64,000 nt of DNA, taken from assembly GCA_003344405.1 (NCBI GenBank), contig NOWV01000149.1:62001-126000 (forward strand), read 5' to 3'. The position numbers were made by a program, and so were the translations under genes. Origin of the DNA: Trichoplax sp. H2. Its lineage: Eukaryota. This document shows positions 11,417 through 58,674 of this stretch, one piece after another (the first letter of the stretch is position 1; each line of letters opens with the position of its first letter). Under the pieces are notes generated by a model, which ran no database searches, had not been told where the DNA came from, and worked only from the letters and a program-made list of their open reading frames with translations.

Positions 11417-11519
11417 CTTTGATACAGTATTTCCAACTGGCGTGGTAGTCCCTAGAATCTGTAGATGGAACTAACGTACAGTAAGCTTGCGAGATCGATC
11501 ATCGATCGGATTCGATTTT

Positions 11520-16570: not shown

Positions 16571-19500
16571 TTACGTGGCCATATTCTCACGCCTTCTCTC
16601 CAATTTAATTATCCCTAAATTAGCAAATAGCAATTTAACATAAAATAATTTATTTAGGTATGTACTCAGTACCGATAAAACCGAGTCTGTTTTCCAAACG
16701 CAGTTTATTAATCAAAATGTTATAATTAAAATTATTCATGGCATAATATTTTAAAGTCAGAGTAATCAATTTATTCACAAACTACAGCTACTTACAGGTT
16801 AAAATCATGCCTAAAGCCAATAAACCAATTAAGACACAATTTGCGATTAAAGTATGGGATGGACGATTAAGAATTCTGTCCATGATACTTATTAATGATA
16901 TTCCAAAGATCTGATAAAACAAAAATTATACTCTGAGGTAACAAGTTTATCTACCGTTTGCAACGAAGGAATCAACGATGAGCTAATCATCAGGATTGCC
17001 CTCCTTATTGCAAGCGCCAAACATTAAATGAAAACTCAGTATTGTAACTATCTCGTAGACACAGCTGTAGTCTAACCTCTTTTCAAAGTATTACTTAAGA
17101 ACTATTGCATTAAAAACCGTCAGGCGTAACAGTAATGCAATGAATAGAGTTTTAGTCTCTAAGATTCGAAATCTACTCAGTCAAAATTTGAAAACGACTC
17201 TACTGTGATTTTATGTTGAACTAGCAATAAATAATAAATCTATTTATATCTAGTAAATCTAACCTGAGCAGAACAATTTAACAAACCAGATGATAGCCCT
17301 TCAGAAATAGGATACGTCATTTCAGCCGCAAACTCAAATCCAACGGGCAATATGGCCGTTGCAAAGAATCTATCCGAAAAAAGTAAAGATTGCTTACGTA
17401 CAAAGAATTCTTCGCTATGTCCAGCAATGAACTACTGTATAAATTACTCAAAATGAAGAATTACCCAAAAGCACCACAAATAAAATAAAGTACTTCAAGT
17501 TGTTTAAAATAAACTCCTAGGGTGAACGCTACAGCGGCGATGACGGAGAAAATGTAGAACGTGACCGTAGTCCCTCTATAGAGAATCACATACCATCATT
17601 TGAACTCAATCATAGACGTATATGGTAACGAATCAAGAAGTGTAAATACTAACTTGAATCGCCTAGTCCAATCAAGCCAAAATCCAACCAGAAAGGCTCC
17701 AACTAGACCACTAATAATAAGAATAAAGCCCATAATACCCACAGCCACTTCTTGATTCTATTTCAGTCAGTGAAATTTATCAAAACGTCTAGTTTGGCGT
17801 ATACCTGAGCCTAATCTCCTGCCAAGATTATATTTTTATTCATTAAATACAAGAGCATGCAATTACCGGTATTTCCGGTAAGATAATTTCGCCTAGAAGT
17901 GTCGAAATTGCGTAGTAGCTTCCAGTAATTATTCCTAAATATTTGCAAAATAGATTCGTAAATACTGTAGGCTCAATTTTATTGAATAGATTTACTTTTC
18001 ATGATCCTGTACTATACTATCCGCTACGATATGATTATTACAAATGTAATCTAGAGAAGACAATCAACTTGCTGGCAACGTATTCTTCGAATCAAATGGA
18101 TCACATACCATAAGATATTAACAGAAGCATAAAATTTCGATTCATTATTAGCATTTTTATGTCTCTCGTAAAGGGATGTCTAGGTGTAACGATGATGTGA
18201 TTTTGATTCCCTGATATACTCTCTTGATCATCATCACGCGCTAACTGTAAGTCTAAGAAATAAAACGAAATTTAAATAAGTTACATATTAAATACCTGAT
18301 AGCAATCGTATATAGTACTCTATTCAAAATGTGAAAAGATTACTAGCCTTTATGGCTATTAATACAGTCAAGAATGCAGAATCAAACAAATTATGACTAC
18401 TTAAAATAAAGCAAACTACCCCCTGCGTTACCTAATACTGACGGAATGTTCTCGTTATCATTATATTGCGCAGTTCCTGTTAATGAAAAGTATAATTTCG
18501 TGGAATTAATACAGTTATAACCAGTGGACATTAAAGCGAGTTCAAGATCGTCTCTTAGAAACGGTATTATTAATCAACTATTAATGACAAATTTGGGTTC
18601 ACCATAACGGACGTTAAGGTCCTTGCTGATATTATTATTCAATTTTTCCGTTCGTGGCTCTTGAGGAAATACTATATATTCATGATTAGATCATTAAACA
18701 GTGCAAGCAATTTAAATTTCAATAAAAAAAATCACATAAAGTGCGTGGTGGCACCAAAATACCTATGAAAATTAAAATGATGATGATCATGCATGAGCAT
18801 GCTTGAGCTAATAGTAAATTCGATAAGTTATGGCTGAATACAGCTCGATTAATAACCACTGGGACCGATATAGGAGAAAGAATAAAGCCGATAGCTGATC
18901 CGACCTGTGGAATAATTCTGTTTAGCAAACGTATTAACGCACTAATAGAAATAGTTTGAGTTTTCGACAGATATCAATAATTTTTACTTAAAGCTCACCT
19001 GATTAGCAAACACAGCTATTGCTGTTGCTGCTGATCGCTGATTCATAGGAAACCAAATAGCTGCCAACCTAAGAATATTATAATAAATGTAAAAATTGAT
19101 TCTCTATTATGAATAGTCTAGCCGAAGAAAAATGATATTCATACGTAAATACCAAGCTTTTTAACCTCCTATACTAAAATGACATCTGAAAAAAATTGTA
19201 TCATTTTTATGCCAGAAATCAAATATTAAATTTTCTCACGAACAGCTTGGAACATGTCAGAAATAGAAAGCCTACTTTGCTGGAATTCCTAATGTGAAGG
19301 ATTGAGCCAATGAAGAAACTATCTGGCCTAGCATCAGCAACCAAAACGTATCAGGATGACTTCCTGAGTATCGTAACCATGCACCAATAGCATTTAGGAG
19401 TCCTCCATATGTAACAGCCGCTTTTAAACCATCCGTTTCCAGCAACCAGGTGGAAGGTAAAATAAATAGAATGTAAGTAGCCATGTATATTTGAGATAAC

Positions 19501-20677
19501 CAGTTAATCGCCGTGGAAGTAACATTATAATAGCCTATCAAAGGCATCAATGAGTCAATCTGACCAATAACGCAATTGAGTGAGATCATATTGTGAATAC
19601 ACAGATCAATTTTAGAAATATGTGAATGAGGTATGGGTTCAGTTTTTATTAAAGAGAGACTAGTGGTGGTGGCTATTCCTCCTAGCAATGGAAAGCTCGT
19701 CAGTGTTGTAGTCATATACAGCAGTCTATAGGTGGGTGTCGGAGAGAATAAAGCTACCAGCAAGCTGATAGTAAATAACTTTCTAGCTGTAGTTTTAATT
19801 TCCTAGTTACAAATTGCACAGTAAAGTATTAAAGCCTATTCTATCGACAAATATCGTTGCAGGCAGTAGTTTGAATTTCTTAACCAAGTACTAAAGCCTA
19901 TTCTATGAGCAGATACAGTATACTTGCAACAACATAGCAATGTAGCAATGGTTTTAATCCCCTTGTTCTAAATTTCCCAACTGACTACTAAAAAGCCTAC
20001 TGTATGAATATTACGCGTATGAGCAGATACCCTAGCGACAATCAAGCAATCTAGTAATTTTAATTTTCGTTATTTTGAAGGAGTTTCCTAACAGTACTAA
20101 AGCTTATCCTATGGACAGATACCTTTACGACAATCAAAACAATTTAGCTGTATGTTTAATTTCCTAACAAAGTTCTAAAGCCTATTCTATGGACAGATAT
20201 CCAGCAATCACTGTACAGTATGCTCTATACTGTAGACTAGAAGGTGGAAAAAAATGCTGAGATTTCCTTACTTAGTATTTAGGTTAATGACTTCGGGGAC
20301 AGTGAATTAGCATTGCTAAGCTGTTGTACCTTACTCGCTAAATTTTGCCAATTGAACTGCAGTTCTGTCATTGTGTGTTCAAACATGGCAATAATAAAAT
20401 ATAATGCAATAAATAGCAAAACGATGATGTAATGCAAACCTTCCAATTGCACAGCGATTGGCGCAAACGTTATCCATTGCATTCCATTGCTACCAGTTAA
20501 TAACGAAAAAGCAAAGAGAGCCATAAAACGCTTACGTCGATTATCTTTACTAGTAAGAGAGTCATTTGTAGATTGGCACTCTTGTTTGCTATTGCCAGCG
20601 ATGATTATGGGAACTGTGTCGGCGTTTTCATCGCTTTCATGAGTTACAACATGTTGTCGATTTTCCATAGGGATCAT
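16571..20677 (-). CDS. FLVCR2: FLVCR-family (SLC49) MFS transporter, probable choline/ethanolamine carrier, 13 exons, ~504 aa
   Basis: Exons 20440-20677, 19276-19534, 18999-19068, 18763-18904, 18603-18671, 18432-18476, 18109-18252, 17867-17934, 17654-17757, 17465-17575, 17264-17369, 16796-16910, 16571-16614 are phase-consistent. Motifs [41 protein letters not shown] and [24 protein letters not shown] are present. FLVCR1 versus FLVCR2 cannot be resolved. Confidence 0.92.
19790..20205. repeat. Degenerate minisatellite (~5 copies) in FLVCR intron 1
   Basis: Recurrent core TTTCCTAAC..AGTACTAAAGCCTATTCTATGGACAGATA, with variants near 19830, 19890, 19990, 20095 and 20175. Confidence 0.75.
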
Positions 20678-23600: not shown

Positions 23601-26011
23601 CAACTATTAATTATTTTCTTATTAAGCCTAAAAATGACGAAAATTAACATTCCTAATAATGTAGTAGAGCATTAGTATTCAATATTCTTCATTCCACCAT
23701 CAAAGTGAATTATTCTAAATTTTGTCTTGGCACGGCGACTACAATAACTCATTTTGATATGATTTGAAAAAAAGTATTGAAATATCGTTAGGTTTAAATA
23801 TTTAATGCCTTTAATTATAAATCTAATCCTATTTTCATTTTATCTTTTTCATTATGCTTCATATTAAAACAATTCATACCTTGGGTATTTGAAATTATAT
23901 AGAAGAAATCATTTCGTCCAAAATCGGTAGGTCCTCAATATAGCTATTAGAATTAGTATAAAAATGGAAGACTGCGCACCTGAAATCTATTTTTATAATG
24001 ATTGTATCTAATATATTCTTAATAAATTTCTTAGAAATAAAACAGCAACTTGATGGCTTTCAGTTGAATAACAAAACTAGTATTAATCGTAAAGAAGAAA
24101 CTGATCGACGGATGGAAGTACCGGTATCAACAACTGCCAACAAATTCCGTTCGCCTCAATTAATGTTAGCCTTGTAGTGATTACATGTAAAACTGGAACG
24201 ACTTTTATGACCATAATCTAGACTGAAAGCCAGTAATATGTTACCGTGATGACATTATCATTGTATCTTGTTCCGTAGAAACTAGTAACTTAGACAGTTT
24301 GTGCGTAGATCGATTAGTTGTACGAATTTTTGAAGTCTACTTCAGCATTTACTGTTAAAAATAATGGTCAGCTTTACTTTTAAAGCATACAGTATTATTG
24401 TGTATGGTGAATATAGACTTTAATGGATTAATAAAATCGATCAAAAAAGTACCACTATTGCAAGAAATAAACTGATTGCGTTATATTACTCAGCACTATC
24501 AGTTGGCTGAATACTACTTGAAAAGCTTTATATATTTCACATTTCATACGAAATATTAGTAGCGCTAAATAATAAGCTGCCTTATTCATTTTGGTGCTAA
24601 ACCTTGGATTAAGACCAAAATCTTCTTTGCGTAATTTTGCATATTTTAAGGTTTTGATTAATATTAATAGAACAACTACAGTCGTATAATAATATTTCCT
24701 GCAAAGTCTATACGATCATTCTCTTTGCAATTGCTATTTATCGATGAATTTTATTAAAAAGTATTCAAAATTCTATCATTCCACACTGAAGTTTTAAGCA
24801 CACATTTATCGTAACTCCCCTAGCTGTTACGATAGCAAGCTTACTAACAGCTGATAGCAAGTTATAAACCTCGGACCTGACTGTGTCATATATGTAAATT
24901 ATATAATCATTGCATCGCCGGTGTGTAGCTTTGCCTAGTTATGATATCAAATATAAACTATTGCGAGATAATATGCTGCAGATTGAAAAGCATGCTAAGC
25001 TTGAACATTTAAACTATATATGGTCGTAGTATGAGCGTTTCAAAAGTACTCATTGCGATGGACTACTTTAAGCAGGTCTTCTTTTGGTTTTCCATGACAC
25101 CTGTATACTATATGGTATACAGCAGAAGCAGGCTGTGACTAGTCACTCTTTTTGACAGACAGACAATTAGGCTCTAACTTTATCTCGTATACATATTTTG
25201 CCAAACTCTTCATAATGACAGTACTTCAGTATGGATAGTCGATTCTGAATCGAGCGATTTTTCTACATTAACAGTTGGTAATGTTACGTTAAATCTTATT
25301 ATCTGTTACCAAGTTTAGCTTGATTACAGCTATATAAAATCGTAAATGTATTTGAATTAGCACGAGTGATTTAGAAAACAAATATGGAAGAAGATCTGTA
25401 CTATGTTCCGTAACTATTTTCGACTTTTACGGTCTTATCTGGTTAGCAAAGTCCGTTAATCGATAATACTGTATAGCTCAGCAGGATTTACCGTTAATCG
25501 CATTAAACTAAATTATACATAATTGTCGATTAAAGCAGTTCCCGAATAATTATAAATGATATAGTCATGTTTTTATTTCATTTTGAGCCGTTTCAGCGGC
25601 ATCTTTGGATATATCGTGGAAAAATTATTGGGTCTAGTGTATAATTTAGCGAAGTAAAAAACGACTTCACATAGGAGGATTCATGTTGCTTTATTAATTA
25701 TTAAATTATACAGGACTACCGATTAATTCAACTATTTCAAATTCGCATAAATGACAATCAGTGTTTTCTTTTACATATCGAATAGACAGCCGCGACATGC
25801 TGATTATGAACTCTATCTGAGTGTTCAAATTATTAGACAATGCTGTCAATTAATATGCCTAAAATGGAGCGTTTGGTATACATCAATTCTAAGGAGGTTC
25901 TTTTCAAAATTGCGAGGCCTTCCACGGCTCTTGGTGTGGAGCTAGTCAGCTGACCTTGTTTACTGGATTGCATAAGAATGTACTGCACATGCTCGGTAGC
26001 AGGCCAACTGG

Positions 26012-26024
26012 ATTGCTTGGAAAC
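26012..26024 (+). promoter_or_regulatory. Candidate RFX X-box upstream of FBXO36
   Basis: ATTGCTTGGAAAC resembles GTTGCYNGGYAAC and lies ~50 bp before the ATG. Confidence 0.4.
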
Positions 26025-26074
26025 GTGAGAGAGACCAACCTGAACTCGTAGTCAAATTGGAGAACTTGGATATC

Positions 26075-26671
26075 ATGGCCAATGTAACAACCGCAAATCG
26101 GAAGCCTCTTATGGATAAAACAGGACAAGCTCCTGCTCCAAGTAAAGATTATCATCAGTTATTGGTCACACATGAAGAAATTATCTGGCGATGGTGGAAA
26201 ATTTCTATGCGAAATAATGCCATTGTTTTTCCAGGGGAAACTAAGATTCCATCGGAAGATTTCGATTACGATGATCGATTGCAGACTGAAATTTTGCGTA
26301 TTTTTGGTAAGGAAACATTGGAAGAAGTAAGACGATTATCCATGTGTAAAGGCGATTACTTAGCTAGTCTACCACTTACAGTATTGATGCAAATTATTGC
26401 TAGCTTGCCGCTGGAAGATATACTGATGTTATCCCAAGTCAATCATTACTTACGATATGTTAGTTCGCTGGACTCGCTGTGGAAGGAAGTCTACATTAAT
26501 TTATGTGGTGCACCAAATGAAGAAATACGCTCCTATGCTAATGAAAATGGCTGGAAGAAGACCCTATTTACAGATAAATTGAAATTAAGAGTTCAATTAG
26601 CACGAAGGAGGAAAGACATGGAATCACCCAAAGCGAATACGTTCATAACGTCTTCTGATTATATAAAGTAG
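26075..26671 (+). CDS. FBXO36: F-box only protein 36 ortholog, single coding exon, 198 aa from the first ATG
   Basis: GQAPAPSKDYHQLLVT..IWRWWKISMR, F-box LASLPLTVLMQIIASLPLEDILMLSQV, and GWKKTLFTDKLKLRVQLARR match the FBXO36 pattern along its length. The ORF-track start at 26057 is a TTG. Confidence 0.9.
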   Translation: MANVTTANRKPLMDKTGQAPAPSKDYHQLLVTHEEIIWRWWKISMRNNAIVFPGETKIPSEDFDYDDRLQTEILRIFGKETLEEVRRLSMCKGDYLASLPLTVLMQIIASLPLEDILMLSQVNHYLRYVSSLDSLWKEVYINLCGAPNEEIRSYANENGWKKTLFTDKLKLRVQLARRRKDMESPKANTFITSSDYIK

Positions 26672-29484: not shown

Positions 29485-31673
29485 TCATACTGTAGTTAAA
29501 GCCATTGCAGGTTCTTTATTTGGAGGATAAGATTGTAATGGCGATATAAGTGGATATAGTCTATCTTCTAAACCAGCCTTTGGAGTCAATTTATTATCTT
29601 GATTTTTAGCAACTAATTGCTGGCCATTACCATTGCTACTAGTACGCGGACCACCGTTGCTACGTTTTGAATATCTAGATGCCCTCGATGTCTTAGTATA
29701 AGTTGCTTGCAAACTTAAACGCAACGATGCACGACGCCGTCTCCTACTAATTCCTAGTAAATTCCATAAACCTCGCCTCATTTCGGAGTTCATAAAATTA
29801 TAAGCGATCGGATTAATGGCGCAATGAGTGAAACTAATTAGAATAGCTATGGAACTAAAAAATCTTAAACCTTCCCTACTAGGATGGTAGGGATCGTCAT
29901 CAAAATAGTTTATAATGAGGACAACGAAAAATGGAGTCCAAGTAAGATAAAATGTACCAATAATGAATACGAAAATAAGAAGTAATTTAAAATCTTTTGA
30001 TGTAATCGGTCTTTTAATATCAGCAGCTCGACTTAATTGACGGTGAAGGCTATTTTGTTGTTTAATTTTTTGTATATGGCCACAAGCCGTTTTAAATACT
30101 ATAGAATAAAGAACTGATAGCAGCAATGCTGGTAGAAAGATATTGACAATAACTAAGACCAGAAAATAGATTTTCTCTCGTGTATGGGTAATAACATGAC
30201 CGCACACATTGATATCCACTTGAGTATAATCATGCCATATTACCATGGGTAATAGTGATAGGATAATCGGTTGCATCCAGATATAAACACTGGCAAGTAT
30301 AAATAATAAAGTAAAGTTAAGCCTGTGCTGAAGAAATGGATAACAAATTGCAATATAGCGATCAATACTAATTGCACAGAAGTTTAAAATGGAAACCATG
30401 ACTAAACCAATACCACATGCATTATAAATGGCGCACCAAAATGGCGCAAATGGCCAATAGCCAAGCAATGCTTGTATCACCATGCCTAAAATCACTATTA
30501 AGGCAAACAAAAGATCGGCAATACTTTGACTGATCATGAAATAATTGGTTGTTGTGCGTAAAAAACGGTTACATAATATAGTAGCAATCACTATTACATT
30601 GCAAACCACGCTGATAATTACTACAGCTAAGCTGAATCCAATAACTATCCATTCACTTGGATTTAAAGGTAGAGCTTCATCAGTGTCATTAGGCTTGGCT
30701 GTATAACCATCATGTCCCGATGATGTTACATTTTTTATTTGATAAGTCAAATTCCATAAGCTAAATGAAATAGATTAGAAAAAGAATCTGTTAGTTTTCC
30801 CTTATTAATACGAATTAGTCAATGAAATTTTCTTTTATTTTTGATGTGATTTGCATATTTTTTAACGATCTTAACTAAGCAACAATTTATGTAAAAGTAT
30901 AATGATACTAAAGTTATTACACGAGTAAATTACGATCTATTAATTTAGATATCTTTTAATCAAAATTTATTAGGGGAAGGATAGAGCCTACACTTTAATG
31001 GCGATATGCATTTTAGTAAAGTAATTACCCTCTATGAGACATTACATTAAAGTTAAGATTTCTAGAAATAAGTATTTGATGTTGAAAGACATCAAATTCT
31101 ATTAGTTTAATATTATCAAATTTAAACAAAATTTTTAAAGAAATTTTGGTAATAATTGCCATAGCAGTTACATATGAAACTTAAAGCCTGATAAATTAAA
31201 ATTTGATTCCTTCTGTCTACTTTTAGTAATATTCTGTATAATTAAGCACATCTACACTACATAGCTTGAGCAAACATAAACATAAGTTAATCGATATTTT
31301 GGTAATAAAATCAACTAGCTTAATTTTGAGTTAGAATTGTTGATTTAGGTCGATTACATCGCTACAGTTACCGATATTTTTAAATTGGTACCTTTGTTTG
31401 CGATTTCAGTGAATAGGAAAACCTTATACCTACTATTAACTTTAGATTTTATAAATCAAATTACTAGTTTAGATCAAAAACAGAAACAATTGTAGTCATA
31501 AGGTTTCTGTGTCAGGTTAAATGGATTAGTTTGGTGCTTCATAAGGGTGTACTGTAACGTTTGGGATAGTAAACACTAGTTAAGCATCATTGAAGATTTG
31601 AATAAAGTCTTGGAACAAAAGCTATATAATAGATAGTGCAGTAAATATATTACCTCAGAACATTCAAATGCAT
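29485..31673 (-). CDS. Rhodopsin-class (class A) GPCR, biogenic-amine-receptor-like; main exon 29485-30760 plus probable start exon 31654-31673
   Basis: Seven hydrophobic segments, TTNYFMISQSIADL, GYWPF..WC, ISIDRY, TWTPFF and NPIAY. The ORF has no in-frame ATG before TM2. The acceptor at 30761 joins in phase with ATGCATTTGAATGTTCTGAG|gtaata (31673-31654), giving MHLNVLSLWNLTYQ. The 5' end is less certain than the 7TM exon. Confidence 0.88.
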
Positions 31674-46300: not shown

Positions 46301-47063
46301 TCTTTATGTTATTTAAAAGTTTCTCTTGCATTTAAAATCTGTCGTGGGAGGTATGCTTTATGTACGTCTAATATCATACCTTTTGTTCATTCAAACTAGA
46401 AAATACCTCTGTCGTCATATGTAAAAGAAGGAATTTACCTTTAACTTGCACTATCAATCCATTGGCATTAATGTAAACTAGCGAAAGAGAACTAAATCCG
46501 GAATTATCGTCGCTATTTCACCACAGTATTTTCTTCGAATGAAAACATTTCATACATTTTCTATGAATCTGTTGGAAATATAGCCAACTTTTTCATGTAA
46601 AACTGTTAATTGCATATACAGTCGACATTTAATTAACAAGAACAAATTTAACCTGTTTTTTCTTTTCGATTTGGGAATCATCTTAATTTAGCTCCCTTTG
46701 TAGAAGAATTTTCAAGGTAGTAATCTTACAGGAACAGACTTGGCACTAGTAATTTTTGCAGTGTAACTCAGATTTATTGAGGCTTACGAAATGAATACTT
46801 AAATTTTCAAAACGCACAGAGAAGTTTTTAAATTTATCATTTGATAGAAATTTTGGTAGTTTACGAAATATCTTATTTCTAGGCGCATACAACTATTTTG
46901 GAATACTTTTCATCTAGCTATACCACTAAAACATTGTCAAACCTGCTGCTCCATGCAGTCATATTTCGTCATCGTTTATTACTAGCTGATATATCTCAAA
47001 GTTTTTCCTTGCTCAAATTTATTATAATTATCAATCGATTCATTATACTCACTTACTAAAATA

Positions 47064-48344
47064 ATGCGGGCCAAGGAAAGCAGTCGATTTTTATTGATTA
47101 TCTATATTCATATATTATTCTTCTCAATTAAGTCTATGGCGATAGAATTTGGAGATATAAGAGTTGAAGCAAAAGGTTTTCCCCCACTTAGTGGCAACCA
47201 TGTGGCTGGAAATCAAGTGTCGAATATAAATAGTCGCTATGGTCAAGAAATAGACTTTAAGACGGTTTATATCTTTACAGTATTCATCACCGGAATTATC
47301 TGCAATGCCATCGTTATTGCTACTATTGCTTATAATCGCCAACTTCATTCTGTAACTAATTATTTTATTGTCAGTCAATGTTGCGCTGATTTCTTATTTG
47401 CGGCTTTAGTTTTACCTGCATACTGTCTGCAAGGTTTATTAGGCTATTGGCCATTTATGCCAGAGTGGTGCGCTATCCATACTTGCTTATCAATTAGTTT
47501 AGTAATGACATCATTACTCAATTTATTTGCAATAAGTCTTGATCGATATTTGGCCATATGTCGGCCTTATCAATATCACACTTGGATGACTACACGTTTC
47601 GTGATTGGAATGCTACTATATATTTGGTTTCAGCCGCTTCTGCTAGCCTTGATTCCAGTATTTGGTTGGAGAGGTGTTCAATCAACTATTGGCAGTCATT
47701 GCGTTGTCGATTTATTTCTATACATAAAACAAGAGAGAATTTATTTGTTAATTATTACATTAATTAACTTTTATATCCCAGCAACAATAATGTTTACTTT
47801 ATATATCCTGATATTTAAAGTTGCTATCCGCCATATTCATAATATTGAACAACAAAGGAATGTTCAAAGAAAGCAACATTATTTTGGATCTATTCAAGAT
47901 CAACTTAATCATCGTTATTTGCGCTTAGCTAAAAACGATTTTCGATTAATACTTGTCTTTGTAATTGTGAATGGCGCATTTTATTTATGTTGGACGCCAT
48001 TTATGACATTTGGCTTAATAAGCTTATTCCATTTAGGACCTGTAACTGATAACTTAGGAATTGCTTGTAGTCTAATGGCGTTTACAAATTGTACACTCAA
48101 TCCGATCATACATAATTTTTTTAATCGAGAAATTCGAAGCGGATTTTTCAGGATGGTTTGCTTCCATACAAGACGCAAGCTTATCAATAGGAGCAACACG
48201 CATATATCTGGCACTCAATGTTCGTCTACTCATGGGAGTACATTTGTTATACGTCACGATCTTATTTCTGCTAAGGATAAAGCGATTATCGAGCAACTGG
48301 TTAACGTGAGCAGGATGAAAGCAAAGAAAGTGACTTATATTTGA
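47064..48344 (+). CDS. Rhodopsin-class (class A) GPCR, paralog of the receptor at 29485, single coding exon (true start may be ATG 47136)
   Basis: 7TM, VTNYFIVSQCCADFL, GYWPFMPEWC, ISLDRY, CWTPF and NPIIH. An acceptor-like TTCTTCTCAATTAAG just before ATG 47136 suggests the first 24 codons may be intronic. Confidence 0.92.
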   Translation: MRAKESSRFLLIIYIHILFFSIKSMAIEFGDIRVEAKGFPPLSGNHVAGNQVSNINSRYGQEIDFKTVYIFTVFITGIICNAIVIATIAYNRQLHSVTNYFIVSQCCADFLFAALVLPAYCLQGLLGYWPFMPEWCAIHTCLSISLVMTSLLNLFAISLDRYLAICRPYQYHTWMTTRFVIGMLLYIWFQPLLLALIPVFGWRGVQSTIGSHCVVDLFLYIKQERIYLLIITLINFYIPATIMFTLYILIFKVAIRHIHNIEQQRNVQRKQHYFGSIQDQLNHRYLRLAKNDFRLILVFVIVNGAFYLCWTPFMTFGLISLFHLGPVTDNLGIACSLMAFTNCTLNPIIHNFFNREIRSGFFRMVCFHTRRKLINRSNTHISGTQCSSTHGSTFVIRHDLISAKDKAIIEQLVNVSRMKAKKVTYI

Positions 48345-50469
48345 GATTATGCAGTTTCAGTAATATATGGTTGCATAACATTTTCTAATGCAAAAGATTC
48401 ATTTATTGCCATCTCTCCATATAAAAGATTTCCAAGCTTAAGTTTCAAATCCACCGTAAAATTGCTAAATATTACCAGAGCCATACTCATATAAGTAATT
48501 TTGCAAGAAGTATGAGATTAAAAAGAAATAATATTCTCTTTCATTATAAAATAACTTTAGGAATAGAAATACTGACATAATAATTTTTGAGAGGTGAATA
48601 TTTTAAATTCCTTTACTAAATCATAGAAAAATATTTCTATCATCAAGTTTTGTAGTTTAGTCGTATATCTGGAACATATAAAGGTATATTTGTATAGTAC
48701 CTATTTAATTGAGGTTGATAAACTCTCTTCATATATCATAATTATTGACTATCTTAAATATTTTAATGAAGGTAATTCTGACGCTAGATATTAGGATTTT
48801 TAAGTATATGCCATGCCAAATTTTTCCCTCGTAACCTGGAATAGGCATTTGGTAAAATGCCAATTTTCCTTTTTTAAATCTCATCTTTAAGAAGTTGTTG
48901 ACATGATGTTATGTGTCACTAGTAAGCGAAGTAACTATTTGGGGTAATTTAATTAAAATCAAAAATTAATAACCTCCAAGCATAGAAAGTTCAGATGAAT
49001 AAAACAAACAAACCATTTTAGTGATATGTAAACTAAAAGATACTACGGTGTACTTTGTAGTATTAGCTTAGAAGATATCAATTATTGATACAATTGTAGT
49101 AGGATTTTGAAGAAAAAATGAAGCTGTAACCAAATGATATTGTATAGGAAGGCATTGATATTATAATTTAAATTTATGATTAAATAAAGGATATCATAAC
49201 AAGAAAATACTGATTCTACATTGAGTAGATTAAAAGTTTGATTAAAAGTTCAGTGTGTCTTATGTGCTATCTACTGTATTTTAGAAGATAAAATTTGCAG
49301 TATATGCTTGTACAGTAAATGACTAGGGTTACACACGCTTAACAATCCCGCTCAAGGCTGCTTTTCTTACAGGATAGTTTATGCTGTTGGCATAACGATA
49401 TCGATGTTAATTATTCACTTAATGCCAGTTATAGTTGTTATAGTTAAGTATATCGTGATGGGAAGGAGCTGGGATTAGCTCACGAAGTACTCCGACTATC
49501 GAAACGTTGGTATATTCGACTTATTGACTCACAATAACTTGGAAATCTTCGGTTAAGTAGTACTCCCTTTCTCGATTAGCTACACTGCCAGTAACTGCAA
49601 GCTAAGAATAATGTAATGCACGTGTATCCTAAGGTATTGCCTGGTGATGCAGGGCTTCTAATCTCTCAGGAGAAATTCAAGTTACTAATTGTACATTTCG
49701 ACAACCAATTTTGAAGAAACAACTGACTCCCGAATACTTGAATACTATACTATTTAAATACAAGTTTTCGTTATGATATGTGTGATCAGACAAGACTGAT
49801 CGGTCCTTTACGCCTAATTTACATTCTAAACCGCAAGCGAGTACAAAACTAAGATTAAAACAATAGCCCTTTTTTTGATCACTAAGCTTGTGAAACTTCA
49901 GATTTTATAAACGGTTTAAGTTGCGTACACTATTGCTGCATTTTTTGGTTACTATTATTAAATTATTCAAGTTCTATTCCGTCACAAATCGTAATTTGTA
50001 ATTAACAATATGGCTTATAGAGTAAAAATTGACGCTACAAAAATACTGTCAATATCTTCAAGAGTATTTACAAAAAAATCTTATGAATAGTACTAGTACA
50101 TTATTATAGCAACTACATCAAACGGCCGAAATGAGAGAAACACAGTAAAAGCACTATTCTTAACTTCTTAATACGATCCGCTTAAATATATGGAATACCA
50201 ATTTGTTATCGAACCAGAATATTGGATAACCTCTGTTATTCCGTTAATACTCTCTGCAGGATGTGTCAAGAGTTCATTAATTAAGCATCCTATACGAGGA
50301 GGCATCTGACAGGAAAGAGAAATATTGCAAGGATGCATTTCTAGTTTCCTCTTCATAATCCCAACAGTAGTTTTCGATCGTTGCTAAGTTATTCCATATA
50401 GCAAAATTATCCAAGTACTATGGTCGAGCGTTCACTAATTCAGTATGAAATCTGTTTTCTACTGAAGTA

Positions 50470-51140
50470 TGCGGACGGTCGATTTTGAGTTGAATCATTT
50501 TTTCTAAATTTAGTACTATTACTTTAAAATTGAATTTTATTATCTATGACTAAGTTTTGCTTAGAAAAATTTCTATAACATCATCAATATTAGTACCAGT
50601 AATTTAGGAAACAGACGCAGAAGATCATTATCGAGTAGCCATTGTTCGAAATTTATGGCCTCATTTGGTGAGAAAAGTCCGCACTGTCAGCCGATTGATC
50701 GATCTTGGATGGACAGACGTTTTCAGCCTCATCTCGTTAAATATCTGTACCAAACAGTCGGTTATAAATATAATACTGTATATAGGTCTAGCTGGACTTT
50801 ACCGGTAACAGCCAGCCATTACTGGTAGTGGCCGGATTACCGGCTACGGCCGTAACATATTTGACTCACATTATACGGACGGTCGATTTTAAATGGACTG
50901 ATTTTTTCTCAATTAAGTAATATTACGTTGAATTTTATTATCTTTTACCAAGTTCCGCTTAGAAATAGTTATGTATAAGATTGTGGACGTTATTTAATTT
51001 ACTACCAGTGATTTGGAAAAGATACTAAGAAGGAAGTAGGCATTGTACGATATTTGCAGCCTCATTTGTTGCTGAAAGTCCGTCTGTCTAGACACTCTTG
51101 GACGGACGGATATTTGGAACAAGATCTGGTTAAAATATTG
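50470..51140. repeat. Two diverged direct copies of a ~270 bp element (50470-50744 and 50873-51139) separated by a GC-rich hairpin
   Basis: Both copies share CGGACGGTCGATTTT, TTGAATTTTATTATCT, GCTTAGAAA, TACCAGT.ATTT.G.AAA, GCCTCATTTG.TG...AAAGTCCG and TCTTGGA.GGAC.GA. Confidence 0.8.
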
Positions 51141-52118
51141 CGCTAGAAGCAAAGTTTGTTACTGTTACATTACGATCGGGACGCGAAATGATGACACCCC
51201 TCGTCCTGTCTTTCTGTCCTTCCATTTGGTAATGTTGGCTATACACTGCGGTACTGTATATGATGCAAATATCTGTCGGCAGAGTACAAACCAGCAAGAC
51301 TGGATGACGAGGAGTGACATCTTTTCGGGTCCAGATCGTAGGTTACCGAATAACGCTTCTAGCGAATTGACAGTTTTTAAACACAATTGTACTACTGTAG
51401 ATGGATTTATTACATGTAATGCCGTAGGTTAGAGTCAGGATGGTACCGTATAAATAGCCTAAACACAGTAGAAAGAACGCGTCTATTTTTTTTTAGCGTT
51501 GCCTTGAGGGTATATCTGACTATGTCTGACTATGACATCACGGCAATTCGTACAGTACGCATGAACGCTTCAACCAGTTCCTACAGCGCATTCATGAGGT
51601 AGAAAAATAGCCAATGGTATACAAGCTCGTTGTTTATATTGGTCATCCGGATCGGTGACAGATGTACAGACGTACCGATCTCCATCAGCACCAACGACGG
51701 TAATGTAGTAACAAGATAAAACATACAGCACGTTACAACCAATCACAGGGGCTTGTAAATCGAGCTTTGAGAGTGGTCGCTGCACCAGAAGCCACTAGCA
51801 ACTTTGCTTGGCAGCTTTTTACACTTTGTTGTTGTCCTGTTTATGGCTGGAATAGATCAATTTTAAATTGGATAAATTCATCATTACGATTCATTTGCAA
51901 CATTGAAACTTACTGTGAAGACTTTCATTCAGTTGAATCCACTTTTGTGTATCATTATAGGCTATCTAGTAGCAGGTTAAAGAATCCCCTTAACTGTAAT
52001 TACAAAGTAATTACAGTTGGAAAGAGCTGCAGATATCAGGTAGCGTGTCTTTGCAACACCGTGACAAGTTGACTAGGCTGCTTCTCGTTTTTCACTCTTG
52101 AAGAAATTATTGCTTACA

Positions 52119-52700
52119 ATGGCGGAACCAAGTCGATGTGCATGGTCTAGTCATGGCAATGCACTATGCAATGACTATCATGATACCGAGTGGGGTGTAC
52201 CTGTACATGATGATGCTAAATTATTTGAAATGCTCATCTTAGAAGGTGCTCAAGCTGGCCTCAATTGGAATACGATCTTGAGAAAACGTGATGGATACCG
52301 TCGTGCTTTTCACAAATTTAATGTTAAAAAAGTAGCTGCCATGAAGGATAAGCAGTTAGAATCGCTATTACACAATCCAGATATTATTCGTAATCGATTA
52401 AAAGTCTATTCTGTACGTAAAAACGCAAAGGCGTTTATAGCTATCCAAAATGAGTTTGGTTCTTTTGACAGTTATGTCTGGCAATTTGTTGACGGCAAGC
52501 CTATTATAGGAAATCGAAAAAAAATCCAAGATTTGCAGTCAAAGTCCGATATCAGTGATGCTATTTCCAAAGATTTGAAAAAGCGTGGCATGAGCTTTGT
52601 TGGTTCAACCATCATGTATGCTTTTATGCAAGCTGTAGGGCTAGTGAACGATCACACTACCAATTGCTTTCGATATCGTCAATTAGTGAATAAAAAATAA
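52119..52700 (+). CDS. tag: DNA-3-methyladenine glycosylase I (bacterial Tag type), intronless CDS, 193 aa
   Basis: RCAW, YHDTEWGVP, LFEMLILEGAQAGLNWNTILRKR, IIRNRLK, SKDLKKRGMSFVGSTIMYAFMQAVGLVNDHTTNCF. The Zn ligands (Cys/His ... HxxxC) and the base-recognition Glu are retained. The first ATG is at 52119. Confidence 0.95.
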   Translation: MAEPSRCAWSSHGNALCNDYHDTEWGVPVHDDAKLFEMLILEGAQAGLNWNTILRKRDGYRRAFHKFNVKKVAAMKDKQLESLLHNPDIIRNRLKVYSVRKNAKAFIAIQNEFGSFDSYVWQFVDGKPIIGNRKKIQDLQSKSDISDAISKDLKKRGMSFVGSTIMYAFMQAVGLVNDHTTNCFRYRQLVNKK

Positions 52701-55001
52701 ATCAATCCTCATGCTGCATTTGGAAATGGAAGACATAACTATAGTTGCCTTACTCTTAATTGGTTATAGTAAGGCAGATTTACTTATGAAATTGATCCAG
52801 ATGTACGTAGCACAACACATATCCGCCTACACAGTAAGTTGACTTTAGGCATGCAATCAATCAATCAAGCTTCTTACCTAGATGATGGTATTTATCTACT
52901 TGTTATCAATGATGGAAAATTACCACAATGTTAAATTGGCAGATGCAAATGACTTAGCAGCCTGTTTCTGCTGAAACTTGAATCGTTCCTGCTGTTCAGA
53001 ATAATGTATACGAGTAAGTAGCTATTCTTCGCTCAATTAAGGAGCAGTTCACGCGAGCAATTGCAGTGCTTTATCTTTGACACTGTTTAGCCTCTACTAG
53101 ATAACTTGCATTTTGATGATAAGACAAAATGTTTTGAACGAATGGTTTATAAGTGCTAACATACTGTATGGGTACTTTTGCTTGATATTTACTGTAAATC
53201 ACTGATACATCAAGGTCTCCAGACGATTTCTTCATAAATTAGTATTTACTGATTTGTTCTAATAACGTCTTGCCGTAGATATCCGTATCTTTAGCAATAT
53301 CTTAATCTTTTGGTTTTACGTTTGTGAAGCTATTTCCTGAGATGATAGTTCTTTGCCACTAATTATCGAGTATCTACTGCATGTGCAATAGAAAGGTGTT
53401 TTAAGAATTGTCTTCTCTTTTGAAACTTGTGGAGAATGGATGTTATATTACAATTTGAGTCAATCATGATCTTAACTTTATTCTTCAATTTAAGGTATTG
53501 TTTATTTCGCTATTTGTTATTGCAATAGTAACTGTAGAATAGACAATATTAACACCATGAAAACTCCAATACAGTAATGTGCTATTTATAAGTAATATTG
53601 ATAGGTAATATTTATCAATCAATCGCTTTGTGAAAAGTAACTTTGTAAACTTCATTACATTTACTATATTTATTGCTTATATACTCCCTGTATCCTATTT
53701 CCAGTATTTCGTGAAGGATATTTTTGATAATTGATTTAATTTTAGCAATGTGAAAGGCAAAAGATAATCAATTACTGTTATTACCAATTTTGATCTTTCT
53801 CAGTTAGATTATTAAATTAATTAAATTGTGCATAACGTTAGTACATTGCTCTTGATGCGGTCGTCAACAATTCTCCGCAATCTTGGAAAGGCATCTTTAA
53901 TAGGAGGTATATGTTAGAGTAACAGTATGTCGATTGTAACGTTATAAAGTCCAATGTTTAAGTTTGAGATAATATAATATCATATAGTACTGTAAAATAC
54001 GTTTTTGCCATTGAGAAAACCAGCTGATGTCCGATATATTGGAAATATTTATTTTATATATAAGTATATGGTACTTACTAGTAGAAATACAACAACAAAC
54101 AGTCCTTCCTGTACTAATTACATTAAAAGCAGAGCTGTCGTGACAACAGCTAATTACTGTAGTTGTATGTTTTGCATTTTTATGGGAATGGTATGAAGTT
54201 AAGACCTGCATACGTTAAAACAGTCAATTTCACTTAATAAATAAACTTAGATTGTGGCTGGTGAGTGATGAAATGGCATACTTATACCATTCGAACTACG
54301 TGTAATTCAAGCTTACTTAGATTTGGTCTCTAAGTATTAAGTGTGGAATTCTTTCATTGTAGTTGTGCGACGTTTTCCCAAGGTGATATAATTAACCACT
54401 AATGCAGTATCACTTCTAAGAGTGATTGCCTTCGATGTGGTATGAGATATCTTTTCAATGTTAGTAGAACTTGTCCATCGACTTGATAATTTCTCATTAT
54501 TAAACTGTAATAGTTTGTGGCCCATAGCTGATGATGTGATGGAGAAGTACGGTATTTGATCTTATAACGATTACTGAAAGCCAGGACTAGCAACTTATAA
54601 GCTGTGTTTAAAATGTGTTAGCAGTTATTACTATTTAATGCTGTTGCTGTGTCTGAGTAGTTCTAAGACAGTAAGATCGCGAACTACAAACCTAAAGTAG
54701 TAGCAGTGAGGCTGCTACTTAACTTTCTAAATTTCAGAGGCGATAACGAAACATAGGAAATAGAACATCAAAATGACAAGTTGGAAATAAATATAGCTTA
54801 GTTTTGATACGAAGTGATTCTTGAAGGATAAAGATTCCTAATTTTTGCAAGTAGTTGAAAATGTTTAAAATTTAAAACGTTTAACGTTCTGGCGATGCGA
54901 GCTTCGAGATGTAGCAAACATTCTTCATGCCGACAGTAATTAGTAATAGAATATATAAGATAATACCCAACAAATGGTTATCCTAAGTCACTACAGTCCA
55001 A

Positions 55002-57740
55002 TTATGAAAGAATTTCGGCAACTTGGTCAACAGTGTTGATTGAATGTATTTTATTGTTAGGAGATTGGTGTTCCTTCTGAGTTTCATTGCAGCCAATATT
55101 AGTGGTGGGTTCCTGTGTATTCGTAGATTTTTCTCGAATACCTCCTTTAGCAAAAGTAAAATGAGAAATATTTTTAGTGGCTTGTGCCCTTGTATTTAAA
55201 TGGGGTCGAAAAAATATAATATACAACTTGGGAAGAAATAAGAAAATCATAGGAGCTGCCCCTAATAAGAGGGTATTTGTTATGCTTAACGCAATAGTAG
55301 CGACGCCTGAGGTAAAGGAATCAACCATAAACGTGGCAATCGCAATTATACTAACAGCAAGTGTAGACATGAAAATATATTTTGACTCATTAAAATTTTC
55401 AGGAAGAGAGCGCGTTTTATAAGCTAGATATAAACAAGTTGAGACAATGACTATGCTCCAACAGACTAAGTTAATATGTCCATAAAAATATTGAATATTA
55501 CAATCAATGACAGTTTGATTCCCATCTCGATATTTTAATAGAGGAAAGGGTAGGATGATTATAAAGGCAGTCAAGATTCCATTAGAAAGGAATAGAAAAA
55601 CCAAGATGAAAGCTACTTGGCAGTAAGTCTTGGTATATTGCTTCCTTCTACTGCTCATGTTTGTTACGTTCTGAAATATATTCTTGACTTGATTTGTTTT
55701 ACATAATATAGTGGTGTATATTCCGATGCAACTCGTAGTAACAAGATAATTCTTGACAGCACATACTTCAGGAGTGGCAGGCAATAAATGGAGGACAGAT
55801 ACTAGTACCAGTAAAGCAAGGAAGGCTAATAGTAGATTTATTAATATGAAATTGGAGCCCTTAACTATAGGTGTCTGTCTTTTTGCGATCATAATGGTCC
55901 AAATAAATATTAATAATAGCAAGTATAAACCTATTGCAACATAACATATTATTGAAATTGGACTAGTATATGATAGCTTTAAAATTGATAAATCAGCGCA
56001 ATATGTTCTATTTATGTCTGGATTAGTTAGAATTGGGCATTTAGTACAAGTAGATTGATTTGTTGTATTAGAAATAGTCCTATTTTGACATAAACGACAT
56101 GACCAGCAGCATGATCGATGTTGCAACTTTATTCGTCTATCTTGATACATATAATATCCTGGAAGACAGTCTTGCGAGCATCGTGACAGGGGTTTATTAT
56201 TCCCAAATAGATGATGATTCCACACAATACTTTCTTCATTAAGAATTAGACCTTCGTTTTGATTCCAATAACCAATATCAACGGGTTCAAATCTTGACGT
56301 ATTTGAATTCATCGATGATTGCAAATTAACAATATTAAAGGATATCTGACTGTTGCCATTAGGTGCAAACCGAAAAGAACGACTTGAGATACCATCAAAA
56401 CGAATCTTACTTAAAATATTATTAAATTGCTGATTATTAAACGATTTTTCAGATATTGATGGGCAATAAGTTTCGTTACAGCCTAGATATTTATGTAGAG
56501 CATGAGCTAATGCTAATGTAGCATCCATAACGAAAGCTGAAATTGGACTTATTTTATAAAATGCTTGAAAATATCGAATTCTAGTCTTATTAAATGTACA
56601 ACTCGGTATTTTAGCATCTATGCTAATTATTTCTTGTAAGGCTTGTCTAAACCAGATGTTATCTAAATTATTACATAAATTAAGGCGATCCAGATAGAGA
56701 TTAAACGCTTGCATAGTAACAGAATTGAAGGAAATGCCGATTACCCCATTAAGGATACTTGATCTAATAGAATAGATTGACGGAGATATCAACCAGTGAT
56801 AGGAACCGATCCAAGTTTTACCTGTTAGCTGATGGATATCAGCTTGTTGAAAGAATCGATAGATGATTAATTCATTACCTAGTAGAACAACTACTTCTGA
56901 TTTAGTTTGATTCTTTAATTTTAAAATAATTTTAGTAATGGAAGACAAAGTATAGTTCTGATCAATCATCAATATCTCATCATAACATATGCCGTGATTT
57001 TGGGGTAGTCGGTTAATATCTTGAATAATATTTTCACTTATGGTATTTCCAGCAATGACAATTGATATCCAATTCCAGTTAAAATAAGTTATAATCTCTT
57101 TAATGGCATACCAATATAGATCATCCGGTACAGAAGTAGAATAAAAGTAAGGAAATTGTTGCTGATCGGTTAAAGACTGATTGAAAAAATAGCTAACTTG
57201 AGTAAAGTGATTTTTGCTTGTATACGATGCCGTTTTAACGGTTATATTGTATAATTTGGCACCAATAACACCAAATATAGGGGAAGAATTAGCCGAAATA
57301 TTGTAAATTGGTTCTGGTAGACTAGATGGAGCGTTATTCGTATTATTGATTTTTGTATGGCTTTGCCCTGTATTCGAAAGTTTTTGATTGGATAAAACAC
57401 TGCTGAGTAATTCCATAGTTTGGTTGATAGATGAAGAAGAATCTAGAAGTGTCCAACCAACTTGAATATTGGGTAGCAAAGCTGGGTTATGATTGATTAA
57501 TTCCTCAATAGTATAAATCATAGCTTGAGTAAGTTGGATATTTTCCGGGTTAAAATACCGAGATAAATTGGACGATTGGTTCTTGTAATCTACTGTGTTA
57601 GGAAAAATACCCACTAACTGCACTTGACCTGGTTTAAAAGTACTGGATTGTGAATTACATAGTTGGAAGTAGCTATGAAAAACAAAATTGGAAAACCACA
57701 ATAGAAATAAGGAGCAAAACGATTTAATATGGTTCTTCAT
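55002..57740 (-). CDS. Class C GPCR (CaSR/mGluR/taste-receptor-like), intronless, 912 aa
   Basis: Signal peptide, Venus-flytrap region (LLPNIQVG, YFNWNWISIV, TWIGS..W), cysteine-rich domain (CSQDCLPG..CCWSCRLC..CTKCP..C), and 7TM with TPIVKGSN, KTRSLPENFNESKYI and FLPKLYIIFFRP. Confidence 0.95.
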   Translation of the reverse strand: MKNHIKSFCSLFLLWFSNFVFHSYFQLCNSQSSTFKPGQVQLVGIFPNTVDYKNQSSNLSRYFNPENIQLTQAMIYTIEELINHNPALLPNIQVGWTLLDSSSSINQTMELLSSVLSNQKLSNTGQSHTKINNTNNAPSSLPEPIYNISANSSPIFGVIGAKLYNITVKTASYTSKNHFTQVSYFFNQSLTDQQQFPYFYSTSVPDDLYWYAIKEIITYFNWNWISIVIAGNTISENIIQDINRLPQNHGICYDEILMIDQNYTLSSITKIILKLKNQTKSEVVVLLGNELIIYRFFQQADIHQLTGKTWIGSYHWLISPSIYSIRSSILNGVIGISFNSVTMQAFNLYLDRLNLCNNLDNIWFRQALQEIISIDAKIPSCTFNKTRIRYFQAFYKISPISAFVMDATLALAHALHKYLGCNETYCPSISEKSFNNQQFNNILSKIRFDGISSRSFRFAPNGNSQISFNIVNLQSSMNSNTSRFEPVDIGYWNQNEGLILNEESIVWNHHLFGNNKPLSRCSQDCLPGYYMYQDRRIKLQHRSCCWSCRLCQNRTISNTTNQSTCTKCPILTNPDINRTYCADLSILKLSYTSPISIICYVAIGLYLLLLIFIWTIMIAKRQTPIVKGSNFILINLLLAFLALLVLVSVLHLLPATPEVCAVKNYLVTTSCIGIYTTILCKTNQVKNIFQNVTNMSSRRKQYTKTYCQVAFILVFLFLSNGILTAFIIILPFPLLKYRDGNQTVIDCNIQYFYGHINLVCWSIVIVSTCLYLAYKTRSLPENFNESKYIFMSTLAVSIIAIATFMVDSFTSGVATIALSITNTLLLGAAPMIFLFLPKLYIIFFRPHLNTRAQATKNISHFTFAKGGIREKSTNTQEPTTNIGCNETQKEHQSPNNKIHSINTVDQVAEILS

Positions 57741-58674
57741 TTTATCGATAATTGGTCAAATAACTGAATGGAAAATTGACTCGATAATTAATCATTGCTC
57801 CTCATGTATTTACATTTACTGAGGCACTAATACTTCTAGATCAACTACTGGACTCGTTTAATGGTTTATATAGAATTCATTCAAGGCCATTTATATTGCT
57901 TAAGCTATAGAACATATTATTCATACCCAGATTCCTTTATTTATATAACTGTTAAGATTAATTAGCTAACTGCTTTCATTGTTTCAAAAAAATAATAACA
58001 TTACCGTTTACGTAAGCGAAATTTTCTTATTCACGTGATGCAATAAAATCTATCATTATTCGAATAGAAAATTGTTTCCTGCTTAAATTTCTTTGTTTTG
58101 GTGATCATAAATTTGTTTTTAATTGAATTGCATAATGTGTTAGAGCTATTTATAAGTTTGAGAAATTGTAAATATTTAACGCTAGAGACCGGATTCGATA
58201 ATAAAAAATAGTTGGCCATCCTATGCTGGATTTAATTAATACGCTTGACTATCCTGGAAGTTTGAAACATAATTTAATGAGTTATAAATCTACAAGTCAA
58301 TTGAATTGCAGTTGCTTCATCTGCCTTTTCCTTAAATTTGGCTATCAACAGTAGAAAGTCATTTAAGCCGATCTGTTTATTGTATAAAGGGCTAAACATT
58401 GGCCAGATGTATACAATACTAATGGAATAGACTAAATATAACTAACTAAATGAACGTAATTTATTTCTGACTGCATTTGTTAACAAATAAATTGCATTGA
58501 TTTCAGATAAACATCTAATAACTGTGACAGATGATAAAATGGCAATTTATTAAAATTTATTCTTTTAACAATCGAATCAATGTTAATAGGAAAATAAGTA
58601 AGTAATTCACATTATGGGGATACAGCTAACTTATTTCATGAAATAAAATCACAAAATCACTTGGGAGTCAAAGT

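Follow-up and report, generated by a model that had tools for sequence, protein, structure and literature searches.

DNA-3-methyladenine glycosylase I, or Tag, is a bacterial base-excision repair enzyme whose mechanism is well established: it flips 3-methyladenine (and 3-methylguanine) out of the helix and exploits the lability of the lesion. The animal-type enzyme MPG/AAG (PF02245) overlaps with Tag in its substrate, 3-methyladenine, but its fold and family are unrelated. Here we describe a Tag gene in a 64,000-nucleotide stretch from the placozoan Trichoplax sp. H2 (GenBank assembly GCA_003344405.1, contig NOWV01000149.1, positions 62,001 to 126,000 of the forward strand; hereafter the window, from whose first letter all positions are counted). 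We consider it probable, with good confidence, that this is a functional, host-integrated gene which an ancestor of the living placozoans took from a bacterium.

52119..52700, plus strand: Tag coding sequence (CDS), 193 codons and a TAA stop, a single exon with an uninterrupted open reading frame (ORF).

Among the described systems, the constitutive enterobacterial Tag enzymes of solved structure (PDB 1lmz, 1nku, 1p7m, 2ofi and 2ofk) resemble the placozoan protein in length (183-187 versus 193 aa), in aligning with it from end to end (E 1e-52 to 8e-57), in sharing the Cys/His/His/Cys zinc site and the Glu/Tyr/Trp pocket, and in having no extra domains. The placozoan gene differs in its position on an animal chromosome between G protein-coupled receptor (GPCR) genes, in its host-like, AT-rich codons and in a short, placozoan-specific C-terminal tail. 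The nearest Tags in sequence are those of Paludibacter, Gastranaerophilaceae, Legionella, Chlamydiota and Opitutia (65-70% identity, the same tree region, 213-235 bits against TIGR00624), from which the placozoan sequences are set apart on a stem of their own (0.32 changes per column, 100/99 support). Plant Tag-like proteins from Selaginella and Cryptomeria have the PF03352/TIGR00624 domain in common with the placozoan protein, and eukaryotes can therefore carry the family. These plant proteins are, however, only 45-47% identical, bear N-terminal extensions of about 250 residues and form a separate, long-stemmed clade, and the Selaginella protein is without the pocket Glu.

A bacterium-to-eukaryote transfer of Tag has a precedent in the anaerobic gut fungi (Neocallimastigomycota), which are described as having acquired a bacterial DNA-3-methyladenine glycosylase I (bioRxiv 10.1101/487215); the recipients there are fungi, not an animal. 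For T. adhaerens, the main text of Driscoll et al. 2013 (PMC3641634) gives 12 bacterial-like genes on large scaffolds: BPL_N (two), DapF, MurA, RsmE, PhrB (four), GNAT (two) and MhpC. Similar to Tag, these are mostly intronless bacterial-type genes among eukaryotic genes of the same animal, and they include four genes for DNA photolyases, which act in repair. Tag does not belong to this set, as “glycosylase”, “methyladenine” and “59553” each occur 0 times in that main text. We found no paper in which the present gene is discussed, and nothing on it in PMC6006793 or PMC4878875. The locus tag of the T. adhaerens counterpart, TRIADDRAFT_59553, gave 0 matches in main texts and occurs only as a label in the variant table of PMC8635375.

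Comparison with Pfam reveals a full-length match of the 193-residue protein to PF03352 (Adenine_glyco; 264.4 bits, E 6e-79, residues 12-185 on positions 4-176 of the 177 in the profile), far above the curated cut-off of 25 bits, and no match to PF02245. Chains of solved Tag structures match end to end (2ofi/2ofk, E 8e-57; 1lmz/1nku/1p7m, E 1.2e-52; 4aia/2jg6, about 1e-37; range 8e-57 to 2.4e-37), and we regard the predicted Tag fold as settled by this match. In the alignment to chain 1lmz_A, residues C4, H17, H175 and C179 (E. coli numbering), which in the enzymes of E. coli and Salmonella are the zinc ligands that join the N and C termini, correspond to C7, H21, H179 and C183 of the placozoan protein. 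Likewise E38, Y16 and W46, the residues that form the 3-methyladenine pocket of those enzymes, correspond to E42, Y20 and W50. The four zinc-ligand columns are invariant across a 9-row alignment, and the pocket residues are also kept in P0002, a candidate Tag from a second placozoan lineage (see below). A preliminary description of the locus had reported a full-length, intronless CDS with all zinc ligands and the pocket Glu; the single ORF, the PF03352 match and the 1lmz_A alignment bear this out.

The first ATG of the ORF lies at 52119, with A at -3 and G at +4, and an in-frame TAG at 52074-52076 shuts the frame immediately upstream. The T. adhaerens protein (TRIADDRAFT_59553, XP_002115530.1, UniRef100_B3S5Y7) is identical at 192 of the 193 positions, I129V being the sole difference, and is the single other member of the 90% identity cluster, which marks the DNA of the window as that of a very near relative of T. 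adhaerens. Its UniRef name is “DNA-3-methyladenine glycosylase I”, i.e., it is auto-annotated as Tag in public databases.

Sequence searches point to bacteria. In a word-indexed protein search (E <=0.001), the best 120 of 8000 scored matches were 61-75% identical to the placozoan protein. Both organism-named rows among them are bacterial (Paludibacter sp. and Anaerolineaceae) and none of the 120 has EukProt as its source. The preliminary description had named orthologues widespread in holozoans as grounds against a transfer; no eukaryote other than the placozoan occurs among the organism-named rows of these best 120 of 8000, in a collection where eukaryotes are thinly sampled. An exhaustive search of representatives at 50% identity yielded 12,517 proteins at E <=0.001, the best of them 62% identical. 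With one genome per prokaryotic species, 528 of the 586 matched stretches encode a Tag relative, and the best 80 loci (58-67% identity) all carry bacterial titles, with Gastranaerophilaceae, Burkholderiales, Legionella, Opitutia, Chlamydiota, Acidobacteriota and Bacteroidota among them. The three nearest clusters shown by the ESM Atlas are likewise all bacterial Tag. Named eukaryotic Tags, retrieved by cluster look-up, are more distant: Selaginella XP_002988078.2 at 45%, Cryptomeria XP_057872814.2 at 47% and an MMETSP transcript at 49% identity. As far as these comparisons go, the closest relatives of placozoan Tag appear to be bacterial, about 60-70% identical and spread over many phyla.

A search for longer proteins returned bacterial fusion proteins only and no named eukaryote. 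We note that many of the longer proteins (P0298-P0384) are of Helicobacter type, 1100-1600 aa long, and fuse a Tag domain with a GMP synthase and several GNAT acetyltransferase domains. Their NCBI name is “glutamine-hydrolyzing GMP synthase”. Such a fusion is uncommon among bacteria and has no bearing on placozoan Tag.

One predicted protein stands closer than the bacterial sequences. P0002 (194 aa, from Logan contigs of up to 5289 nt) is 75% identical to the window Tag, and the two are reciprocal best matches, with the next matches of P0002 at most 72% identical. They have in common an LCNDYHD motif close to the N terminus and a tail of the form RY.QLV.K at the C terminus, neither of which is seen in the other six aligned rows. 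The identity of 75% lies within the range of 57-88% given by six Hoilungia-versus-Trichoplax protein rows from the supplement of PMC6067683, and a “many-1” row for GO:0008725 with 2 genes in the GO table of the same source is a hint rather than a finding. A metagenome scan with P0002 recovered 80 loci at 56-65% identity, none of them placozoan-like. By sequence, P0002 is likely, but unproven, to be the Tag orthologue of another placozoan genus.

Phylogenetic analysis places these three sequences together and among bacteria. In a FastTree phylogeny of 466 Tag domains (404 proteins and 80 loci, less 18 proteins dropped for having fewer than about 150 aligned residues), the window Tag, the T. adhaerens protein and P0002 are joined at 0.997 inside a 156-row clade of bacterial top matches. 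The nearest bacterial row lies at 0.83 changes per site from placozoan Tag, and plant and MMETSP rows at 2.3-2.4. A quick IQ-TREE analysis of 94 rows gives the same picture (99 SH-aLRT for the trio). For a more careful tree (LG+C20+F+G4 PMSF, 192 columns), 43 rows were hand-picked after the 94-row tree and long-branch rows were excluded; the trio receives 100/99 support with P0002 as sister, and three plant-type rows form a 100/100 clade elsewhere on a stem of 1.01. Overall, Tag nests among bacteria in four trees, and the 192-column tree prefers a bacterial origin over a single eukaryotic clade, although the topology tests are weak.

Several points weigh against the transfer of a functional Tag gene and have to be set beside this result. 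In the 43-row tree, the 28-row group that encloses the trio, otherwise bacterial or unnamed, has just 88/86 support, and the trio is sister to no single bacterial phylum. In approximately unbiased (AU) tests, forcing the trio together with the three plant rows and the MMETSP row costs 25.3 log-likelihood units (lnL) and is not rejected (p-AU 0.111), while forcing the trio together with the three plant rows costs 24.3 lnL and is borderline (p-AU 0.0487). Many of the match rows are Logan, ENA or JGI predictions without names, some of which are possibly eukaryotic, and, the trio apart, just three eukaryotic rows are named by organism or source; a fourth, unnamed row clusters with the two plants. 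At the family level, the protein misses two NCBIfam cut-offs, namely that of TIGR00624 “tag” (213.1 versus 232.5) and that of the equivalog model NF007678 (212.7 versus 349). These misses weigh little against membership in the Tag family, because, of five neighbours that are bacterial or presumed to be so, four likewise score less than 232.5 (Paludibacter 219.2, Legionella 213.8, Gastranaerophilaceae 225.4 and P0034 226.1; P0020 passes with 235.4). Finally, the RNA evidence given below consists of assembled contigs, without strand, ends or level, and DNA may occur in RNA libraries.

One alternative is vertical descent, i.e., an ancient eukaryotic Tag that was lost from all other animal lineages, with no transfer into placozoans. 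Tag-family genes do exist in eukaryotes, as in Selaginella, Cryptomeria and the MMETSP transcript named above, the sampling of eukaryotes is thin, and the AU tests leave a joint clade of placozoans, plants and the MMETSP row standing and one of placozoans and plants at the border. We nevertheless regard vertical descent as unlikely. Placozoan Tag is 60-70% identical to proteins from many bacterial phyla versus 45-49% to the named eukaryotic ones, and trees without constraint put it in the bacterial group and the plants elsewhere on their long, fully supported stem. Neither placozoan-type query, the window Tag or P0002, has an organism-named or EukProt eukaryote among its 120 best matches. At the column of the pocket residue E42, moreover, the Selaginella row has Ala, while placozoan and bacterial rows keep Glu.

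The preliminary description had called for a phylogeny against bacterial, plant and other eukaryotic Tags; in the trees given here, with few eukaryotic rows, placozoan Tag falls among bacteria and the plants apart, but the enclosing branch has modest support and the AU tests are borderline at best. In sum, horizontal transfer is in our judgement likely and the best-supported explanation, drawn more from the similarity ranking and the placement in the trees than from a decisive topology test. Transfer from a bacterium to a placozoan is the best reading because a full-length Tag gene with bacteria as the source of its nearest relatives is physically part of the chromosome of an animal, where it is probably expressed.

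Evidence for expression comes from public sequencing runs. Contigs of four runs (DNA runs X18 and X7, and X19 and X20, which are recorded as RNA and random-primed) were compared with positions 46500-58500 of the window. The features that concern the transcript are the following.

52075..53018, plus strand as inferred from the ORF: colinear RNA-library contig (X19 record 12), the probable mRNA body, with about 44 nt 5′ of the ATG and about 318 nt 3′ of the stop.

52040..52103, plus strand: earlier-proposed 64-nt intron in the 5′ untranslated region (5′-UTR), unsupported; CAG followed by GT at 52037-52041 and AG at 52102-52103 are present as letters.

RNA contigs lie over the CDS in both RNA runs. 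X19 record 12 (951 nt, of which 944 are placed and 7 are loose letters beyond 52075) is the only one to span the whole CDS, and its word depth of 10.3 is the highest of the 30 X19 depth bins; X20 record 18 is a 427-nt contig on 52462-52888. The depths, 10.3 and 4.5, are low. In the bins 50510-51311, RNA depth is zero in both RNA runs, with 53-62 in the DNA runs. That these libraries hold real RNA is shown by two spliced joints of X20 in other parts of the region. Missing RNA cover, as in 51955-52075, proves nothing. We conclude that Tag is probably transcribed.

The two joints of X20 lie on one RNA contig and define a transcript of their own, spliced and on the minus strand. The first skips 46569-46652 (84 nt; CT..AC on the plus strand, i.e., GT..AG on the minus strand) and the second 47718-51502 (3785 nt; on the minus strand GC..AG). 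The middle exon (46653-47717, 1065 nt) overlaps in antisense the beginning of the class A GPCR ORF 47028-48344 on the plus strand, and the upstream exon (51503 to about 51695) is arranged head-to-head with Tag at a distance of about 400 nt from its RNA contig. A bidirectional promoter may therefore lie between about 51700 and 52075. Shortly before the start of that Tag contig, the X18 strain lacks 4 nt at 52004 and 8 nt at 52009 and has 7 extra nt after 51779; tolerance of such indels at 51779 and 52004-52020 is as expected for non-coding sequence.

The preliminary description had suggested a possible 64-nt intron in the 5′-UTR, ending 15 nt before the ATG and so implying the same start codon at 52119, and a CCAAT box near 51739, and had proposed spliced reads across 52040-52103 as a check. 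X19 record 12 is colinear from 53018 back to 52075 and so crosses the proposed acceptor and continues 29 nt into the proposed intron, including 52075-52103. A joint from 52039 to 52104 was sought among the contigs of both RNA runs, which can drop rare forms, and none was found. The pair of GT and AG is no more than expected by chance, since 354 GT..AG pairs 40-300 nt apart occur within the 500 nt upstream of the ATG. In our reading, Tag consists of one exon behind a short 5′ leader, and the proposed 5′-UTR intron is not supported, although a minor spliced isoform may occur. A different splice, e.g., from an upstream exon to an acceptor at 52076 (AG at 52075-52076), may occur. The letters CCAAT are indeed present at 51739-51743, but they lie 336 nt upstream of the end of the X19 contig, within a stretch that is itself partly covered by low-depth RNA contigs, and their proposed role as a promoter element is not supported.

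A further alternative, with which the low RNA depth would agree, is that Tag is an integrated relic without function or is used for something other than the excision of 3-methyladenine. Placozoans already possess an MPG/AAG homologue, which leaves no gap for Tag to fill: in the supplement of PMC6067683, the Hoilungia hongkongensis protein braker1_g04981.t1 matches PF02245 (Pur_DNA_glyco) at 4.8e-64, has mouse 3MG as its best Swiss-Prot match and has XP_002116268.1 as its best T. adhaerens match (77.9% identity). Conservation of the gene makes a relic or a changed use improbable. The window, T. adhaerens and P0002, despite its divergence to 75% identity, all have an unbroken ORF, with all zinc ligands and pocket residues kept, and the CDS differences listed between runs are two synonymous changes and I129V. 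Between the window and the contig that bears the CDS there are 5 differences in 1036 places, whereas contigs from the same run that lie upstream have 14 in 663 and 22 in 1740.

The position of the gene is defined by its neighbours and by a contig from an independent run.

47028..48344, plus strand: class A (rhodopsin-type) GPCR ORF, the upstream neighbour, 438 aa from stop to stop (7tm_1, 1.3e-47).

50880..58500, no strand assigned: single DNA contig of run X18 that joins Tag to the class C GPCR (8888 nt, depth 33.4, 113 differing letters, 29 gaps).

55002..57755, minus strand: class C GPCR ORF, intronless, the downstream neighbour, 917 aa from stop to stop (ANF_receptor, 1.4e-40; NCD3G, 2.8e-12; 7tm_3, 1.8e-38).

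In two or more placozoan species or strains, Tag lies within the chromosome of the animal, with GPCR genes on either side. The window's own contig spans 187,851 bases, and the 113 differing letters and 29 gaps identify X18 as another strain, not the window's own assembly; its depth over Tag (33.4) equals that of the flanks. In DNA run X7, which carries another species label, the region is tiled by shorter contigs at >=99% identity, with the G at 52503 that encodes the Val of the T. adhaerens protein. In T. adhaerens, Tag sits on a scaffold of 2,399,976 bases, and the variant table of PMC8635375 (supplement file 9) sets TRIADDRAFT_59553 at about 1.524-1.526 Mb of NW_002060953.1, between TRIADDRAFT_29696 and TRIADDRAFT_59554 and hence in the scaffold interior. 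There the distance from Tag to the next gene is consistent with the class C GPCR of the window. Tag is thus linked to genuine host genes in the window contig, the T. adhaerens scaffold and the X18 contig, and the embedding among animal GPCR genes put forward in the preliminary description, for which missing linkage to the flanks was to count as a refutation, is confirmed, with 7tm_1 and 7tm_3 ORFs on the two sides.

The surroundings and composition of the gene are those of the host. When 1934 ORFs (>=70 aa) from 80 bacterial Tag loci were compared with window positions 48400-55000, 200 of the 202 matches fell inside Tag and the other two were antisense frames overlapping its 3′ end; no remnant of a bacterial neighbour was found within 3.7 kb upstream or 2.3 kb downstream. 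Only Tag itself is therefore bacterial-like in 48400-55000. The GC content at third codon positions (GC3) of Tag is 0.32, host-like beside 0.26-0.37 in five host ORFs and versus a median of 0.61 (range 0.17-0.94) in 80 bacterial homologues. Bacterial contamination or an assembly chimera, which an intronless gene of bacterial length and bacteria-like sequence could suggest in animals reported to harbour intracellular bacteria (PMC3641634), is extremely improbable given the same junctions in the window contig, the T. adhaerens scaffold and the X18 contig reaching the class C GPCR, an X18 DNA depth equal to the flanks, host-like GC3 and no other bacterial-like ORF on either side.

The interval between the class A GPCR and Tag has a further feature. 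At 49708-51311, word depth is raised in both DNA runs (49-78 versus about 28-37 in flanking bins), contig breaks and loose ends fall near 49721-49733, 50149 and 50878-50943, and most of the interval has no RNA contig. It looks like a repeated element.

Other features of the window lie farther away; the first three count, like the GPCR ORFs beside Tag, among the animal genes that surround it.

19272..19802, strand not stated: fragment of a major facilitator superfamily (MFS) transporter, by domain match.

26000..26671, strand not stated: F-box ORF, by domain match.

29485..30774, minus strand: rhodopsin-type GPCR ORF (7tm_1).

The window also opens within an ORF for a zinc-type alcohol dehydrogenase (1-681, plus strand; open-ended, uninterrupted, 226 aa; ADH_zinc_N, 3.8e-26; GC3 0.33). 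A stop-free frame of 155 aa at 11475-11942 (plus strand) is built from ...YSTVQY/CTVQ... units in succession and thus points to tandemly repeated DNA of short period, not to a gene.

Taken together, these data sustain a good part of the domesticated horizontal acquisition proposed in the preliminary description: the gene is intact, host-linked, of bacterial affinity and probably expressed, whereas the alternative of vertical descent is not firmly rejected (p-AU 0.111 and 0.0487). Its further suggestion that Tag adds alkylation repair is supported in part, in that MPG/AAG is recorded in Hoilungia and T. adhaerens and Tag is thus extra. Since an MPG/AAG homologue is present, placozoan Tag is an addition, not a replacement. 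Algal methyl halides as an ecological rationale are speculation.

From the conservation of its active site we infer that placozoan Tag would act like bacterial Tag on 3-methyladenine. The 22-kDa protein is of bacterial length, has neither an N-terminal extension nor an added targeting sequence, and there is no room for a presequence because Cys7 is already a zinc ligand; entry into the nucleus would presumably occur by diffusion. As a monofunctional glycosylase, Tag would flip 3-methyladenine (and 3-methylguanine) into the Glu42/Tyr20/Trp50 pocket and cleave the already labile glycosidic bond of the cationic lesion without a catalytic Asp. The resulting abasic site would then pass to the AP endonuclease of the host and to the remaining steps of base-excision repair, with Tag working beside the animal-type MPG/AAG. 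More tentatively, and with somewhat less than an even chance in our estimate, Tag may have been retained throughout the phylum since the deepest sampled placozoan lineages split and may act on nuclear DNA beside MPG.

Placozoan Tag represents no new kind of biology. In our reading it is a bacterial repair gene domesticated in an animal, of a kind already known: transfer of Tag to eukaryotes has been reported for gut fungi, and the protein is auto-annotated in public databases. Expressed and well-documented bacterial genes in animal chromosomes are, however, few and often disputed, and this case offers clean linkage, an intact active site, a probable orthologue in a second lineage and a simple biochemical test. 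In Trichoplax, Tag would be a fifth DNA-repair gene beside the four photolyase genes proposed as bacterial acquisitions in PMC3641634. This hints that repair functions could be a favoured class of acquisition in this very simple animal, which tolerates DNA damage (PMC8635375). If the more tentative reading of a phylum-wide enzyme acting on nuclear DNA is correct, placozoan Tag would be the first case of a Tag-family glycosylase shown to be at work in an animal. Placozoans would then have a second way, and a highly specific one, to remove 3-methyladenine, a lesion that blocks replication, and this might aid their unusual tolerance of DNA damage.

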